Assembly (NCBI GenBank): GCA_023380305.1
Contig: JAMCQZ010000006.1
Location: forward strand, 1-58,281
Length of the DNA stretch: 58,281 nucleotides
Origin: Patescibacteria group bacterium
GTDB lineage: Bacteria > Patescibacteriota > Minisyncoccia > UBA6257 > Colwellbacteraceae
Reading direction: 5' to 3'
Shown: positions 19,710 through 50,175 of the stretch, in pieces
Layout of the letters: every line of letters begins with the position of its first letter
Numbering within the stretch: position 1 is the stretch's first letter
Translations under genes and position numbers: made by a program
Notes under the pieces: model-generated
Databases searched by the model: none
Told to the model about the DNA's origin: nothing
The model's input: only the letters and a program-made list of their open reading frames with translations

Positions 19710-20798
19710 ATGGCCATATTTGATTTTTTGAAGCCCCTAAAACCGTTGCTTTCTTTCCAATCGGCCATCGGGGTTGATATTGGCACGACTTCCATCAAGC
19801 TCATCGAATTAACGATCGTCGCTGATCGGCCGCAATTCAAAAACTACGGCATATTGGAAACATACGGCCACTTATCCAGGCAGAATAGCGCCATCCAGAC
19901 AAGCAGTCTGAAGATGGACGACAAAGAAGCGGCCGCCATGTTGCAGGCGCTCGTTAAACAGACCAGGCCCGGAAACGCCATGGTTTTTGCGTCTTTGCCT
20001 CCATTCTCCGTTTTTACCACCTTGCTCGAGCTGCCGATGATGCCGAAGAGCGAAATGGATCAAATCATGGCTTACCAGGCGCGGGCCTTGGTGCCGGCCG
20101 CCATTGCTTCCGTTTCCACCGAATGGTCGGTGGTCGGCGAGTTCGAGGATGAAAAGGGGCAAAAAAAGCAGCAGGTTTTTTTAAGCGCCATTCCGAACAA
20201 CATTGTCGAAAAATACAAGAGCATTTTTCAAACAGCCGGTTTGAGTTTGAAGGTTATCGAGATCGAGGGCGCAAGCCTGGCCAGGGTTTTTACAAAAGGG
20301 GACGATGAATTTTCCTTGATTCTCGATATTGGCGGGAGATCGACCGGAATCTACGTCGCCCAAAACGGTCATCTTTTTTCGAGCGGTTATATTGATTACG
20401 CCGGCGGCTCTTTAAGTCAGGCGGTCGCGAACGGCTTGAATATCAACGTGAAGCGGGCCGAAGAGCTGAAAAAACGCCGGGGTTTGCTCGGAATAGGCGG
20501 GGAATACGAGTTGTCCACTTTAATGCTGCCCTACGTGGATGTTATACTTAATGAGATAAAACGAGCGAAAGACAATTTTGAGAGGAATTATCGCGGCCAA
20601 ATAAAGAAAGTGATCCTTTCCGGCGGAGGCGGCGAACTTGCCGGTCTGGAGAAATATGCCGCCGAATTCCTGCAGATGAGAGTCGAAAAACCCAGCCCTT
20701 TTGCCAATATCAGCTATCCGCCGGCGCTCCAGCCCGTGGTGAACGAGCTTGGGGGGGAGCTGGCAGTCGCGATCGGACTCGGATTGCGCCAATTTTAA
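19710..20798 (+). CDS. pilM: Type IV pilus assembly protein PilM
   Basis: IGVDIGTTSIKLIEL, LILDIGG, VILSGGG, AVAIGLGLR (actin-like fold). Confidence 0.92.
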   Translation: MAIFDFLKPLKPLLSFQSAIGVDIGTTSIKLIELTIVADRPQFKNYGILETYGHLSRQNSAIQTSSLKMDDKEAAAMLQALVKQTRPGNAMVFASLPPFSVFTTLLELPMMPKSEMDQIMAYQARALVPAAIASVSTEWSVVGEFEDEKGQKKQQVFLSAIPNNIVEKYKSIFQTAGLSLKVIEIEGASLARVFTKGDDEFSLILDIGGRSTGIYVAQNGHLFSSGYIDYAGGSLSQAVANGLNINVKRAEELKKRRGLLGIGGEYELSTLMLPYVDVILNEIKRAKDNFERNYRGQIKKVILSGGGGELAGLEKYAAEFLQMRVEKPSPFANISYPPALQPVVNELGGELAVAIGLGLRQF

Positions 20799-44255: not shown

Positions 44256-45516
44256 AGACAAAAAAAAGAAAAAAGCGCGAAAACCGGCGACCAAGGCGCG
44301 GAAACCGGCAAAGAAGCGGTTGGCGCGCAAGCCGGTTAAACCGCGGAAACCGAAGAAAGCAGCCAGACCAAAAGCCGCGAAAAAGATCTCGAAGAAAGCC
44401 GTCAAACCGGCGAAAAAAACGGCGGTCGCGGAAAAGCCGCGCAAATTCAAATTCGATCCGGCGATCCTCGACGAGCTGCTTACCCAAGGCAAAGCCAAAG
44501 GATTTGTGACCGATCTTGAGATTTTGAAATTTTTCCCGAGAATCGAGGCGGACGTTCCTTTCCTGGAGCACATTTACGACCGTATTGAAGAAGCCGGATT
44601 GCGCGTTATCGACGTCGGCAACTTGATTGAGCTTCCAGGAGACGAGATCACCCAAAAAGAGCTTGAGGATGCGACCTTGATCACCGGCGAGCTTCCGGAC
44701 AACGTCCAGATCTATTTGAAAGAAATAGGCAAAACCCCGCTTTTAACGACTCTTGAAGAAAGGGAAATCGCCAAAAAAGTGGCTCATGGGGACGAAGAAG
44801 CCAGGCAGAAACTTATTAAGGCCAACTTGAGGCTCGTGGTTTCCATCGCCAAGCGTTACGTCAACCGGAGTCCCCAGCTCGGTATCCTCGATCTTATCCA
44901 GGAAGGGAACCTCGGACTTTTCCGGGCGGTCCAGAAATTCGATTATCGTAAAGGATTCAAATTTTCGACCTACGCCACCTGGTGGATCAGGCAGGCGATC
45001 ACCCGCGCCTTGGCCGATCATTCACGCACCATCAGAATTCCGGTCCACATGGTGGAGACAATTTCCAAATACACCCAGGCGAGACGAAAATTGATGCAGG
45101 AGCTTGGCCGCGAGCCGTTGGCCGAAGAGGTGGCCATCGAAATGGGCGTAAGCGTGGATAAAATTCGTCATATCCAGAAGATTTCCCAAGAAGTGATTTC
45201 GCTCGAATCCCCGGTCGGAGAGGAGGAGGATTCGACTCTTTCGGAATTTATCGAGGACGAGAAGACCCTTTCTCCTTCACAGGTGGTTTCGCGCGAGCTT
45301 TTGAAAGACCAGATCAGGGAGGTTTTGAACGATCTGACCGAAAGGGAACGGAAGATTTTGGAGCTGAGGTTTGGCTTGAGCGACAACAATCCGCACACCT
45401 TGGAAGAGGTCGGGAAGATTTTCGGTGTTACCAGGGAGCGCATCAGGCAAATCGAAGCCAAAGCTTTGGAAAAAATCAGGCAGCATCAGAAGTCCGTCAA
45501 GTTCGGGGAATACTAA
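44248..45516 (+). CDS. rpoD: Primary sigma70 factor with a Lys/Ala/Pro-rich N-terminal tail
   Basis: [57 protein letters not shown]; dnaG-rpoD order. Confidence 0.96.
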
Positions 45517-45517
45517 C

Positions 45518-47368
45518 ATGTTGTCCGCCGACGAGATCAGAAAAAAATATCTGGATTTTTTTAAGGAAAGGGGACATGCCGTCATTCCTTCGGCTTCCCT
45601 AATTCCCGAAAACGACTCAACCCTGCTTTTTACGAATTCGGGTATGTTCCCGCTCGTGCCTTATCTCGCCGGAGAAAAACACCCGGCCGGGAAAAGGCTC
45701 GTGGATTCCCAGAAATGCTTCCGGGCCGAGGACATCGAGGAGATCGGGGACAGTCGGCACGACACTTTCTTTGAGATGCTCGGCAACTGGTCTTTGGGAG
45801 ACTATTTCAAAAAAGAACAGCTTAATTGGTGGTACGAGTTTCTGATCGAGGAGCTCAAGCTTGATCCGAATAGGCTTTACCAAACCGTCTACGCCGGCGA
45901 TCCCAAGATCGGCCTGGAAAAAGACGACGAAGCTATCGCCATCATCAAAGATGTTTTCAAGAAATACGGTCTTGAATCCGGAGAAGGTCCGGCGACGACT
46001 GGCAAGGGAGATTTGGGGTCGGGCGAAGAGATTGATTTCGACCGAGATCGCGTTTTCGCTTACCGCGACAAAAATTGGTGGCAGCGAGGGGACGCCTTGG
46101 GCGAATTGGGCGGCCCGGACTCCGAGACTTTTTACGACACCGGAAAAGCGCACGATCCGAAATTCGGGAAGTATTGCCATCTTAACTGCGACTGCGGCCG
46201 GTTTTTGGAGATCGGCAATTCGGTTTTCATGCAGTTCGAAAAAACCGTGGAGGGTTGGAAACCGCTTCAAAACAAAAACGTCGATTTCGGCGGAGGATTG
46301 GAAAGGATCGCCATGGTGGCAAACAGCCTTGGAAATATTTTCGAGTCTGAGCTTTTCGCGCCGATCATCGAAGAGATCGAGGGCTTGTCCGGCAAAAAGT
46401 ATGCCGATAACCGCCGGGCCTTCGAGATTGTCGCCGATCATTTGAAAGCAGCCGTCTTTATCATGTCCGAGCCGGCCCGGGTCGGTCCTTCAAACAAGGA
46501 TCAGGGTTATGTCGTGCGGCGTTTGATCAGGCGGGCGGCGGTTTATGGTCGCGAGCTCGGCGTCGGCGACGGCGTTTGGATGAAACGGATTGCCGATATC
46601 GTCAGGAAAATTTACAAGGACGTTTATCCCGAGTTGAAAAATAATAGGGCCTTTGTCGACGAGGAGTTGGAAAAAGAGGAGGGGAAATTTATGAAAACTT
46701 TAGAAAAAGGTCTTAGGGAATTTTCAAAAATCGATCAGACGGACGGCGTCTCCGGCAAAGAAGCCTTCAATCTTTATCAAACCTTCGGTTTTCCCATCGA
46801 AATCATCGAGGAGCTTGCAGCTCAGAAAAACGTGAGCGTTGACAAGGGGGAATTCGAAAAAAAGATGAAAGAGCACCAGGAGCTGTCCCGGACAGCTTCG
46901 GCTGGAATGTTCAAGGGCGGATTGGCCGACCAGAGCGAGGCGACGACCAAGCTCCACACGGCCGCCCATTTGCTTTTGGCGGGACTCCGCAAAGTGCTCG
47001 GCGAGCACGTCGTCCAGAAAGGAAGCAACATCACTGCGGAAAGATTGAGATTCGATTTTTCCCATTCGGAGAAATTGACGGACGAGGAGATTAAGCAAGT
47101 CGAGGATTACGTGAACGAAGCCATCAAAGCGGACAAGCCGGTCGTTTGCGAAGAGATGGATTTGGAAAGCGCGAAAAAATCCGGCGCCATGGGCGTTTTC
47201 GACGATAAATACGGCAATAAAGTGAAGGTTTACGACATTTCGCCCTACAGCCGGGAGATTTGCGGCGGTCCCCACGTCGCTCGCACGGGAACTCTGGGGC
47301 AATTCAAAATCCAAAAAGAGGAATCCGCGGCGGCGGGAATTAGACGCATCAGGGCGGTTATTTTATAA
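45518..47368 (+). CDS. alaS: Alanine--tRNA ligase lacking the C-Ala domain
   Basis: LLFTNSGM, HDTFFEMLGNWSLGDYFK, DFGGGLER, editing motifs HTAAH and CGGPH. Ends at GIRRIRAVIL. Start reassigned to 45518. Confidence 0.95.
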   Translation: MLSADEIRKKYLDFFKERGHAVIPSASLIPENDSTLLFTNSGMFPLVPYLAGEKHPAGKRLVDSQKCFRAEDIEEIGDSRHDTFFEMLGNWSLGDYFKKEQLNWWYEFLIEELKLDPNRLYQTVYAGDPKIGLEKDDEAIAIIKDVFKKYGLESGEGPATTGKGDLGSGEEIDFDRDRVFAYRDKNWWQRGDALGELGGPDSETFYDTGKAHDPKFGKYCHLNCDCGRFLEIGNSVFMQFEKTVEGWKPLQNKNVDFGGGLERIAMVANSLGNIFESELFAPIIEEIEGLSGKKYADNRRAFEIVADHLKAAVFIMSEPARVGPSNKDQGYVVRRLIRRAAVYGRELGVGDGVWMKRIADIVRKIYKDVYPELKNNRAFVDEELEKEEGKFMKTLEKGLREFSKIDQTDGVSGKEAFNLYQTFGFPIEIIEELAAQKNVSVDKGEFEKKMKEHQELSRTASAGMFKGGLADQSEATTKLHTAAHLLLAGLRKVLGEHVVQKGSNITAERLRFDFSHSEKLTDEEIKQVEDYVNEAIKADKPVVCEEMDLESAKKSGAMGVFDDKYGNKVKVYDISPYSREICGGPHVARTGTLGQFKIQKEESAAAGIRRIRAVIL

Positions 47369-47375
47369 TTCAGTC

Positions 47376-48314
47376 GTGGAGACTGAATTCATAGAGATAT
47401 CTGACGGAAAGTATATAGTAGTCGCGCCGGCCTCCTTGAGTTTAACGGTCTACACGCGGGTCATCGAGGAGCGTGAACGGCCGCGCGAAGAGATAAGCGA
47501 GGCTGAGCTTTCTAATATAGTCTCCCAGGCGATTTGGAAAGTATTCGACAAGGAACGAACGCCGGCGAGTTTCCGGCTCGGCGTTCCCGAAATAGACGTT
47601 TTATTGACCGACGCCCGTATTGTTTCGGCGCGGGTGGACGGATCCAAAGTGCTAAATCCGATCGGTTTTCCGGCGAAAAAGATCGAAGTGGGGGTTTCGG
47701 AAACCTTGGCAAGCCGAGAGGCTTTCCAAAAAATTCAAAAAGGGTTGCCGAAAAACGGGGAAATACTTTTTATCAGCGAGCCTACGGCGGTCAAGGCTCA
47801 TCTTTTGCATGAGGAGAGCCGTAATAAGAATTTTATTTTCGCAAACATTTTGAAGGACAAGACTTACGTCTGCGCCGTTAAGGAGAACGGCGACATCCTG
47901 CCGGCCGGGGATTTTGACTGGGGTCTCGACAATCTCCTGCAGGCTTTCCACGACGATCTTTTGATTTTCAAGGAGAGCGTCCCTGTCGTTCTGAATCGCT
48001 ACCTTCAAAACGACGCCTCGGCCGATTTTTTGAAAAAGTTCAAGCTCGTTTTTAACAAACATTTTTCCGTTTTCGGGAAGGGCGTGTCAGCGGCGAGCCA
48101 CAATGCTAAAATGGTTAAGCCGACGGTATTTATTATGTGCGACAAGATTGGCTCTTCGGCGAGGCCTTTCAGCCTTGTCGGGGGAGCGAAGTTTTCATTC
48201 CTGCCTCAGGAAAAAGCGGGCGACATCTTGAAGCGGGAATTCATCCAGTTTTCTTCGAATAAGAATTTTAATCGGTTCGCCCGACAACGCATCAAGTGGC
48301 TTAACCTGAATTAA
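47376..48314 (+). CDS. Divergent FtsA-like protein lacking the N-terminal phosphate loop
   Basis: RVDGSKVLNPIGFPAKKIEV resembles the FtsA 1C motif (IDxxxxxxNPxGxxGxRxE). GTG start. Confidence 0.5.
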   Translation: METEFIEISDGKYIVVAPASLSLTVYTRVIEERERPREEISEAELSNIVSQAIWKVFDKERTPASFRLGVPEIDVLLTDARIVSARVDGSKVLNPIGFPAKKIEVGVSETLASREAFQKIQKGLPKNGEILFISEPTAVKAHLLHEESRNKNFIFANILKDKTYVCAVKENGDILPAGDFDWGLDNLLQAFHDDLLIFKESVPVVLNRYLQNDASADFLKKFKLVFNKHFSVFGKGVSAASHNAKMVKPTVFIMCDKIGSSARPFSLVGGAKFSFLPQEKAGDILKREFIQFSSNKNFNRFARQRIKWLNLN

Positions 48315-49927
48315 TGGACAAATCCGAAAATAAGAAAATTTATCTCAAAAGGAGCGAAACCGCGGCCTCGATTATTCAGAAGATACTGAACGCCCGCGAG
48401 CTGAAGGTAACCCTCGTCGTTCCCAAAGATTCGGTTCTCGCCGAAAACGGCAACAATTTTTATTTAATCTTCCGTGAAGCCTCGGCCATGGGCAAGCAGG
48501 TGAATATCGAGTCGAGCGACGATGACGTCATAAACCTTGCTTTGGCCTCCGGCTTCCAGGTAATCAATCCGGTTTTCAAAAAAGTGAAACGGGCCGTGGC
48601 CGACATTATTCCGGTTTCGGCTCCGGTAAAGCCGGGACGTCGCCCCCGGGTCAAGGCGACTTTCGAAGAAAAGCCGATTCCGGCGCCGGCAATCCAGGAG
48701 GAACCGAAAGAAGAGTCGGAAATCGAACCCGTCATCCACGAATATGAACCCGAACCCGGACCAGCGTCTCCGGAAGAACCGCGGAGGCCGAGGGGACTGA
48801 AAAAAATCGTTCTGGTTTCTTCGGGGATCGTTCTCGCCGGCGTTTTGGCGTATGCGGCGCTTTACGTGTTGCCGAGGGCGGACGTGAAATTGACTTTGGT
48901 GAAAACCGCCTGGGAGACGCCGATCGGCATTACCGCTTCCACCAAAGCGAATACGGAAACCGGACTTACCATTCCCGGGCAGGTGTTTGCCGTGAATAAA
49001 AACAACGTTTTCAGCGCGCCGGCGAGCGGCACCAAAAAAGTGGCGCAGAGCGCCACCGGCATTATCACCGTTTACAACGCCTATAGTTCGAGCAAGCAAT
49101 CCATCGTTAAAGGAACGCGCTTTATCACCACGGGCGGAAAGGTTTTTAAAACAACCAAGGCCGTTACCATTCCGGCCGCGGCCATCAACGAGGGGAAGAT
49201 CGTTCCTTCAAGCATCGATGTCGAGGTGGCGGCGGAAAAGCCCGGAACCGAATACAATCTTGCGGCTGGTCAGAGCTGGCGCATACCCGGATTTGAGGGC
49301 ACGCCGAAGTTTAACGGATTTTATGGAGAGTCCAAGGAGGCGATGGCGGGAGGGTTTGTCGGCGACGTCAAAGTGCCCACCGAAGCGGACATCGCCGCTT
49401 TGAGAGAAAGGTCCAGACAGGAGCTTTTAGCGATGGTTAAAACCGCCGGAGACATTGCCGTGCCCGAGGAATTAAAAACGATAAACGGCGCGACGTCGTA
49501 CGCCGTCGTTAAGGAAGAGGTGGTGAACGATGTCGACGAAAATGGCAATTTTAAAATGGTGCTTGCCGCCGAGACAAAAATCATGGCTTTCGACGAAAAA
49601 AGCGTCCGCAAGGTCGTCGAAGAAAAACTGAAAACAAGCGCTCCGGGCGAAGGCTATGAAATGAAAAATTACGAAATACGCTACGGCGAAGCTAGCGTTA
49701 ATTTTGGAACGGGCAAGGCGATTATTCCGCTTACCATCGTTTCGGAATGGATTAAGATTTTCGACGCCGCCGGGTTTAAGGCGGCTGTCGCCGGCAAATC
49801 AGAAGGGGAGGTCAATAATTATGTTGTGGGAAATCCGGAAATCCGGTCCGCGGTCGTTACCCTTTGGCCGTTCTGGGTAAGGAGCGTTCCCCGGGACGCG
49901 GATCGCGTCATCCTGACCCTCGAATAA
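48314..49927 (+). CDS. Single-pass membrane protein with a baseplate J/gp47-like domain
   Basis: Cytoplasmic N-domain, Pro/Glu linker, transmembrane helix, then ATG.ITVYN...GTRF.T..GKVF.T...VTIP...V.A..PG..YN...MAGG. Confidence 0.65.
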
Positions 49928-49939
49928 AGGGGGCGGATA

Positions 49940-49969
49940 TTGACTCCAGCCGGGGCCTTGTGTTAGTAT
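49940..49969 (+). promoter_or_regulatory. Promoter of the infA-alpha operon
   Basis: TTGACT, 18 bp, TAGTAT, with a TG extension. Confidence 0.55.
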
Positions 49970-49977
49970 TTTCCTAC

Positions 49978-50175
49978 ATGATAGAAAAAGGCGTTGTTCT
50001 TGAAGCTCTCCCGGCTGTCAATTTTCGAGTTGAGCTGGAGGGCGGAAAAGAAGTTCTCGCGTATCTATCTGGCCGCATGCGGCAGAATCACATTAAGGTT
50101 TTGCCCGGCGACAAAGTGACGGTGGAGATGTCTCCCTACGATGATAAAAGAGGACGCATCACCCGTAGGCTTTAA
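49978..50175 (+). CDS. infA: Translation initiation factor IF-1
   Basis: [41 protein letters not shown]. Start at 49978. Confidence 0.95.

Follow-up and report, generated by a model that had tools for sequence, protein, structure and literature searches.

A conserved gene pair of Patescibacteria combines an FtsA-like protein, devoid of ATP-binding motifs in one clade, with a membrane protein bearing a GlxA/baseplate-J type barrel

Two adjoining genes lie in a stretch of 58,281 nucleotides (nt) of DNA from a Patescibacteria group bacterium of the Colwellbacteraceae (contig JAMCQZ010000006.1 of assembly GCA_023380305.1; hereafter the window). The first (gene 1, 47376-48314, 312 amino acids, GTG start) encodes a truncated FtsA paralogue without ATP-binding motifs, and the second (gene 2, 48314-49927, 537 amino acids) encodes a bitopic membrane protein of a family annotated as “baseplate J/gp47 family protein”. 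We find that these genes form one conserved module of Patescibacteria. What sets the window’s clade apart is that its gene 1 has lost all ATP motifs and, in the window’s family, part of subdomain 1A as well. Patescibacteria account for much of the diversity of bacteria, and a role is known for very few of the core genes specific to their lineages. The present pair occurs almost throughout the phylum and is required for growth in the only species whose gene fitness has been measured genome-wide, but we found no description of it beyond automatic names. All coordinates are those of the window; alaS, the pair with its parts, and the promoter-like site before gene 1 are on the + strand.

All 41 relatives had gene 2, as did 283 of the 301 genomes chosen to represent the phylum (251 of the 254 genomes of good quality). 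The gene 1 profile matched 262 of the 301, the weakest of which may be cross-matches to true FtsA or PilM. One unpublished genome (G194) is counted in these tallies, and no claim depends on it. Among 112 gene 2 loci, 98 had gene 1 directly upstream on the same strand, and 8 of the other 14 were cut by contig ends; gene 1 was likewise directly 5′ of gene 2, on the same strand, in 20/20 regions from 20 different families. The initial annotation of this DNA had staked its reading on the two genes being conserved as a pair, and they are. The junction between them was 50 nt or shorter in 76 of the 98 loci and overlapping in 15. In the window itself the overlap that had been pointed out is indeed there: the sequence TAATG at 48312-48316 holds both the TAA of gene 1 (48312-48314) and the ATG of gene 2 (48314-48316). 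When one genome per prokaryote species was scanned, 547 encoding loci were found, and the 80 that were listed were all from Patescibacteria.

In all 21 loci examined, the genes around the pair are housekeeping genes. Its upstream neighbor was alaS in 18 of 21 diverse loci. Downstream we found two contexts, one consisting of infA-rpsM-rpsK-rpsD-rpoA-rplQ, as in the window, and the other of ruvX-mltG, after which come either mreB-mreC-pbp2 or obg together with a LysM/CHAP hydrolase. In the window, gdh, ddl, dnaG, rpoD and alaS (45425-47368; alanyl-tRNA synthetase, Pfam tRNA-synt_2c, E 1e-116) precede the pair, and infA, rpsM and rpsK follow it, in keeping with the earlier description of housekeeping flanks without phage context. 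A neighborhood as stable as that of alaS raises the question of whether the two genes are merely co-resident in a rigid operon and work independently, as would also fit the one family that has gene 2 without gene 1 and the differing transposon sequencing (Tn-seq) calls of the two genes described below. However, the pair is kept together across both the infA-rpsM and the ruvX-mltG contexts, its junctions are short or overlapping, and the two proteins’ distance matrices remain correlated once an alaS proxy is taken into account (partial r 0.6-0.75), a correlation that residual phylogeny may inflate. We consider independent function to be very unlikely.

A few lineages depart from the common arrangement. 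In family f37, sampled by 15 rather large genomes (0.8-1.6 Mb, with a completeness of about 76-93%), none of the 15 had a match to gene 2, and gene 1 gave only three weak ones. Family f47 (loci L157 and L158, from the ~700-kb genomes G110 and G292) keeps the pair, with a gene 1 of 408-415 amino acids and a gene 2 of 604-609 amino acids, in another neighborhood that has no recognizable adjoining alaS, ruvX or mltG. At one further locus (L150, genome G251), only two short open reading frames, of 153 and 170 amino acids, lie upstream of gene 2.

Gene 1 has the fold of FtsA. An AlphaFold2 model built on an alignment of 150 sequences had a mean predicted local distance difference test score (pLDDT) of 95.8 and a predicted template modeling score of 0.92; an alignment of five close sequences had given a pLDDT of 38. 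With this model, the best solved structures in Foldseek were FtsA chains (E about 1e-9), and VIA likewise returned FtsA chains at Z 13.4-15.8 with 259-274 residues aligned, the top match being 3wt0_A (Z 15.8, 274 residues, root-mean-square deviation 5.2). Scores were lower for PilM, at Z 12.5, and for MreB, at about 9. An hhalign comparison of the gene 1 family with six FtsA proteins of the candidate phyla radiation (CPR) gave 97.8% probability, E 5e-12, over 361 columns. Against the PDB, the family profile placed FtsA and PilM at the top with marginal values (E 0.003-0.07), and it placed the stretch DGxxVxNPxGF within subdomain 1C of T. maritima FtsA (residues 141-160). Thus, the FtsA-like assignment of the initial annotation is borne out by structure. 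The window protein by itself had no match to any Pfam, NCBIfam or PHROG family, missing the gathering score of Pfam FtsA, and a phmmer search of the PDB gave nothing significant; long orthologues in five other genomes matched Pfam FtsA at 53-62 bits, against a cut-off of 31.8. A word-based search gave only five close relatives, and a full HMMER search of 1.8 billion representatives gave 504, most of about 400 amino acids.

Within gene 1, residues 22-113 (47439-47714) form an SHS2 module resembling subdomain 1C of FtsA, with the pattern E22-32, H42-68, E75-87, E102-113 in the model. No other part of the protein is as well conserved as this module, which has 2.13 bits per column versus 1.3-1.65 elsewhere. 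Residues 151-280 (47826-48215) correspond to subdomains 2A and 2B. The C-terminus carries a conserved basic and aromatic sequence, RRxRWL, whose W308 is found in at least 90% of sequences; a global alignment that was forced pairs it with the tail of FtsA, and the model shows one continuous helix spanning residues 281-309. The window’s genome also encodes a canonical FtsA of 410 amino acids on another contig, a PilM at 19710-20798 of the window (PF11104, E 3e-31), and two further proteins matching PF14450, which we take to be MreB. Gene 1 is therefore an additional paralogue. It sits between alaS and gene 2, not in an ftsZ context, and the PilM model (PF11104) gave no match for it and an E of 0.027 for a relative. 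The open reading frames that follow PilM on the + strand, up to about 26258, resemble pilN, pilO and pilus ATPase or platform genes in size and position.

All three ATP motifs are gone from gene 1 of the window: phosphate 1 is deleted, phosphate 2 reads ANILKDKT, and the adenosine site reads MCDKIGSS, the latter two being degenerate sites within subdomains 2A and 2B. The initial annotation had noted the missing N-terminal DIG nucleotide loop; the loss goes further, taking about 70 residues along with it and the other two motifs besides. Of 23 loci from other or deeper-branching lineages, 20 retain the motifs LDIGT (phosphate 1), IDIGGGTTD (phosphate 2) and CGGGS (adenosine), and these motif-keeping proteins, of about 415-446 amino acids, also clear the Pfam FtsA cut-off. 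In contrast, all three motifs were gone in all 78 loci of the window’s clade, which includes Harrisonbacteria, Colwellbacteria, Jorgensenbacteria, Liptonbacteria and Paceibacterota. Intermediate motif states occurred in some loci of the same class that belong to other orders. The 150 nearest relatives had suggested that the whole family was ATP-dead; we rejected this idea because loci of other classes keep all three motifs. The “actin-like scaffold” proposed by the initial annotation applies with a reservation, because, to judge from its motifs, gene 1 of the window is predicted to be incapable of binding ATP in the canonical way.

A short form of gene 1 (fewer than 340 amino acids) was found in 26 loci of the clade, including the window and its family. 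Short forms lack the first ~70 residues, which in long relatives carry β1-β3 and α1 of subdomain 1A. In these loci no more than about 10 nt separate the gene 1 start from the alaS stop (7 nt upstream of the GTG in the window), leaving no room for an N-terminal extension, so the truncation is real. At one locus (L155:3778-6789 on the - strand of contig C11, genome G234), alaS and gene 1 occupy one uninterrupted frame of 1003 codons, with residues 666-903 matched by the gene 1 profile; the frame reflects either a fusion of alanyl-tRNA synthetase with the FtsA-like protein or a stop codon lost by sequencing error.

Gene 2 spans the membrane, as the initial annotation had proposed, and does so once. 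Its N-terminal residues 8-92 (48335-48589) form a cytoplasmic alpha/beta domain conserved across the phylum (alignment A5); a profile of this domain searched against the PDB gave nothing significant and no STAS protein. It is followed by a clade-specific linear motif, ADIIP, at residues 96-100 (48599-48613), with the consensus SDIVP and with D97 and I98 invariant in alignment A4. A cytoplasmic linker rich in proline, glutamate and lysine (residues 101-163, 48614-48802), poorly conserved at 1.15 bits per column, ends in RRPRGLKK just before the single hydrophobic transmembrane helix (residues about 164-186, 48803-48871), which was read from the sequence and is oriented N-in by the positive-inside rule. 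The remaining ectodomain, of about 350 residues, holds a beta-barrel of the GlxA/baseplate-J type at residues 239-340 (49028-49333) and continues through residues 341-537 (49334-49924), a region that had no sequence-level match and contains GGFVG and C-terminal LWPFWV..P motifs in the 73-sequence alignment.

The outward baseplate-J/gp47-like domain of the initial annotation was recovered here in the barrel. Residues 247-338 matched the Pfam GlxA beta-barrel (PF21110) with 35 bits (cut-off 27). Residues within 240-338 matched Pfam Baseplate_J (PF04865) with 27.3 bits (cut-off 21.1), covering only profile positions 16-86 of 255. The same barrel matched PHROG 6, “baseplate wedge subunit”, with an E of 4.6e-11, and the family profile matched the structure of Streptomyces GlxA (4unm) at E 0.03. 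The full wedge architecture was not detectable in gene 2 by sequence. Across 73 family members, Pfam GlxA was matched by 59 and Baseplate_J by 10. With 2.86 bits per column in alignment A3 of these 73 sequences, the barrel surpasses every other region of both proteins in conservation.

These data bear on the suggestion that the pair is a domesticated, phage-derived baseplate part serving as a surface device for contact with, or attack on, a host. Both Baseplate_J and PHROG 6 score above threshold, a domain of the S. epibionticum protein (see below) was called gp6 domain III-like, cultivated members of the phylum are epibionts, and in S. epibionticum the gene is needed for growth on the host. 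However, the likeness by sequence is confined to one barrel of ~90 residues, shared with GlxA, which is an enzyme and not a phage protein and which more family members match; no phage tail or baseplate gene lay beside the pair in any of the 21 loci; and the pair occupies a housekeeping operon across the phylum. A prophage remnant was rejected, given the lack of phage genes nearby and the phylum-wide distribution. Contact with a host is further disfavored by the ectodomain barrel, whose conservation exceeds that of any other part of the pair and is far higher than expected for a host-contact surface. A phage-derived or domesticated nature of the pair is not supported, and we regard this explanation as the least probable of those considered here, with only a very slight chance of being correct.

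Published data on Southlakia epibionticum offer a view of the pair in a cultivated organism. Its gene order, mnmA-alaS-SEML1_0656-SEML1_0655-ruvX-mltG-LysM-obg (Wang et al. 2023, Cell; PMC10633639, Tables S1 and S2), was recovered in four loci of the present sample. SEML1_0656 is annotated as “pilus assembly protein PilM” (K03590, Pfam FtsA) and SEML1_0655 as “baseplate J/gp47 family protein”, and both are core, Patescibacteria-enriched families (PMC10633639). From synteny, names and lengths (427 and 556 amino acids, in the same order and similar to those of the window pair), we infer that SEML1_0656 and SEML1_0655 are the orthologues of gene 1 and gene 2. The two species differ in that S. epibionticum gene 1 matches Pfam FtsA, whereas the window copy is truncated, has lost its motifs, and lies in a pair followed by infA and ribosomal genes; by analogy with motif-intact loci, SEML1_0656 is probably an ATPase. 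In Tn-seq, SEML1_0655 was classed as class II essential, being non-essential at T0 but essential at both T1 and T2, whereas the call for SEML1_0656 was a growth defect at T2 (PMC10633639). The same tables give domain calls for SEML1_0655 that are SpoIIAA-like (residues 6-105, probability 0.89), beta-barrel (256-365), G3P pilus-binding-like, and gp6 C-terminal domain III-like (probability 0.86) (PMC10633639). Neither SEML1_0655 nor SEML1_0656 appears in the main text of that paper, and our full-text literature searches found no main-text discussion of “baseplate J” or SHS2 with Patescibacteria, CPR or Saccharibacteria.

The PilM annotation of SEML1_0656 leads to the question of whether the pair is an accessory type IV pilus alignment unit, with gene 1 as a second PilM and gene 2 as a PilN/PilO-like protein with a larger outer domain. 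An actin-like protein beside a bitopic partner is the PilM/PilN layout, PilM is a good structural match of gene 1 (Z 12.5), one domain of SEML1_0655 was called similar to the “pilus binding domain in G3P”, and type IV pili are nearly universal in Patescibacteria (PMC10633639). Yet the window already encodes a canonical PilM, gene 1 is nearer to FtsA than to PilM, and among the 21 loci examined the pair was never beside pilus genes. In addition, the pilus genes of S. epibionticum are mostly class I essential (PMC10633639), as opposed to the class II call of gene 2 and the mere growth defect of gene 1. A pilus role thus appears improbable.

The SpoIIAA-like call for the N-domain of SEML1_0655 would fit another explanation, in which gene 2 is a transmembrane receptor or signaling protein whose ectodomain senses a ligand, either external or in the envelope, and whose SpoIIAA-like domain acts by partner switching, with gene 1 as the regulated output or scaffold. 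Receptors typically have an architecture like that of gene 2, in which a long, flexible tether carries a globular domain, and Atlas clusters include Ser/Thr kinases of Chloroflexota with an outer domain of the Baseplate_J type. Against this, the SpoIIAA-like call (probability 0.89) comes from another orthologue and our PDB profile search with the N-domain gave no STAS protein, none of the 21 loci had a linked kinase or phosphatase gene, the N-domain is wholly missing in some lineages, and the kinase cluster resembled the gene 2 ectodomain in predicted structure with a template modeling (TM) score of only 0.37, below 0.5. We rate a receptor no higher than a pilus role, as a poor prospect. The kinase cluster comprises proteins of 834 amino acids, mostly from Chloroflexota, and 50% of its members match Pfam Baseplate_J, which hints, as a lead from modeled structures, that an ectodomain of this type may serve as an extracellular sensor module.

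The explanation to which we give the most credence, at somewhat less than an even chance, is that in the window gene 1 is a nucleotide-independent adaptor on the bitopic gene 2, and that the pair acts on the cell’s own envelope, in wall growth or division, and not on the surface of a host. The SHS2/1C domain of gene 1 would dock on the cytoplasmic part of gene 2, as in PilM-PilN, FtsA-FtsN and MreB-RodZ, and docking would link the cytoplasm with an ectodomain whose binding partner is a conserved part of the cell’s own envelope. In this class the xDIV(P)/SDIVP motif is a candidate docking peptide, because short forms of gene 2 that lack the N-domain begin with it. No nucleotide would be needed in this clade, since the ATP site and part of 1A have been lost while the pair has been conserved over many genera. 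The partner of the ectodomain would be an invariant component of the cell’s own envelope because the barrel is conserved far beyond what would be expected of a host-contact surface. Wall genes lie downstream of the pair in many lineages (the ruvX-mltG context), which fits a role in the envelope.

Several observations weigh against this adaptor model. The gene order alaS-ruvX-mltG is ancient in bacteria, so linkage to wall genes may be inherited and not functional, and in the window it is infA and ribosomal genes, not wall genes, that come after the pair. The SDIVP motif is clade-specific and absent from gene 2 in other classes. Gene 1 is kept in five loci from four families even though gene 2 has lost its N-domain, and in one family (L153 and L154, from genomes G308 and G322) gene 2, of 465 amino acids, lacks the N-domain and there is no gene 1 after alaS. 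The different severities of the two Tn-seq phenotypes in S. epibionticum imply that gene 2 has no strict requirement for gene 1. Within clades, the covariation between the proteins does not single out the cytoplasmic part of gene 2, and residual phylogeny may inflate it. Finally, as regards the trans-envelope complex of the initial annotation, it is from synteny and coupling that we infer physical contact between gene 1 and gene 2.

Two further ideas about the docking site were dropped. Mirror-tree co-evolution of gene 1 specifically with the cytoplasmic part of gene 2 was not borne out, the covariation being unspecific. Loss of the gene 2 N-domain together with loss of gene 1, which would mark that domain as the docking site, holds only in part.

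A broader version of the adaptor model would make the pair a so far unstudied envelope-spanning cytoskeletal module, core to envelope building or division in Patescibacteria, that can run without ATP binding and half of 1A, its actin-like partner reduced to a pure SHS2 adaptor. We advance this version as a speculation that is rather unlikely to hold in full.

Transcription of the pair may begin close to its first codon. The best promoter-like site in the region (TAGACG, 17 nt, TATAAT; 47341-47369), identified by consensus match only (10/12), ends 7 nt before the gene 1 GTG. A second promoter-like site, at 49940-49969, ends 8 nt before the ATG at 49978, where infA probably starts. If both sites are real, the messages of gene 1 and infA would be leaderless or nearly so. 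A simple scan found no convincing terminator on the + strand inside the unit.

The window’s clade represents a natural experiment in which the ATP site and part of the fold have been lost and the pair has been kept. That the pair survived this loss suggests that gene 1 works through its SHS2 domain, and it provides matched counterparts of the protein, ATP-competent and ATP-dead, that can be compared. Because S. epibionticum is genetically manipulable, the function of the pair is directly testable.

Among known systems, gene 1 is closest to FtsA (PF14450 plus SHS2 PF02491; structures 1e4f, 4a2a, 3wt0 and 7q6f), with which it shares the actin-like fold and the 1C/SHS2 insertion, and FtsA has in FtsN a bitopic membrane partner, as gene 1 would have in gene 2. 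Unlike FtsA, gene 1 of the window has no ATP motifs, is missing about half of 1A, and lies outside an ftsA-ftsZ context. PilM-PilN (2ych, 5eou) similarly sets a cytoplasmic actin-like protein beside a bitopic protein with a short conserved cytoplasmic motif, a possible docking peptide; however, PilM gives a lower structural score than FtsA for gene 1, and gene 2, in contrast to PilN, has a domain in the cytoplasm, carries an ectodomain that is unrelated and much larger, and shows no linkage to pilus genes. The baseplate wedge proteins J, gp47 and gp6 (PF04865, PHROG 6) and domain 2 of GlxA (PF21110, 4unm) have one barrel of 90-100 residues in common with gene 2, which, unlike the phage wedge proteins, is membrane-anchored and has no phage neighbors. 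The cytoplasmic domain of GspL/EpsL, from type II secretion, is an actin-like/SHS2 adaptor that has lost nucleotide binding; GspL differs in being fused to its own transmembrane segment and in binding the GspE ATPase, and it was absent among the gene 1 structural matches listed. In RodZ- and ZipA-type tethers, a bitopic adaptor, composed of a globular domain in the cytoplasm, a disordered linker and an outer domain, binds a cytoskeletal protein; MreB-RodZ and the ZipA-type tethers resemble the pair in layout only, with no relation in sequence or fold. The layout of the pair is thus that of the FtsA-FtsN, PilM-PilN and MreB-RodZ couplings, but with a different outer domain.

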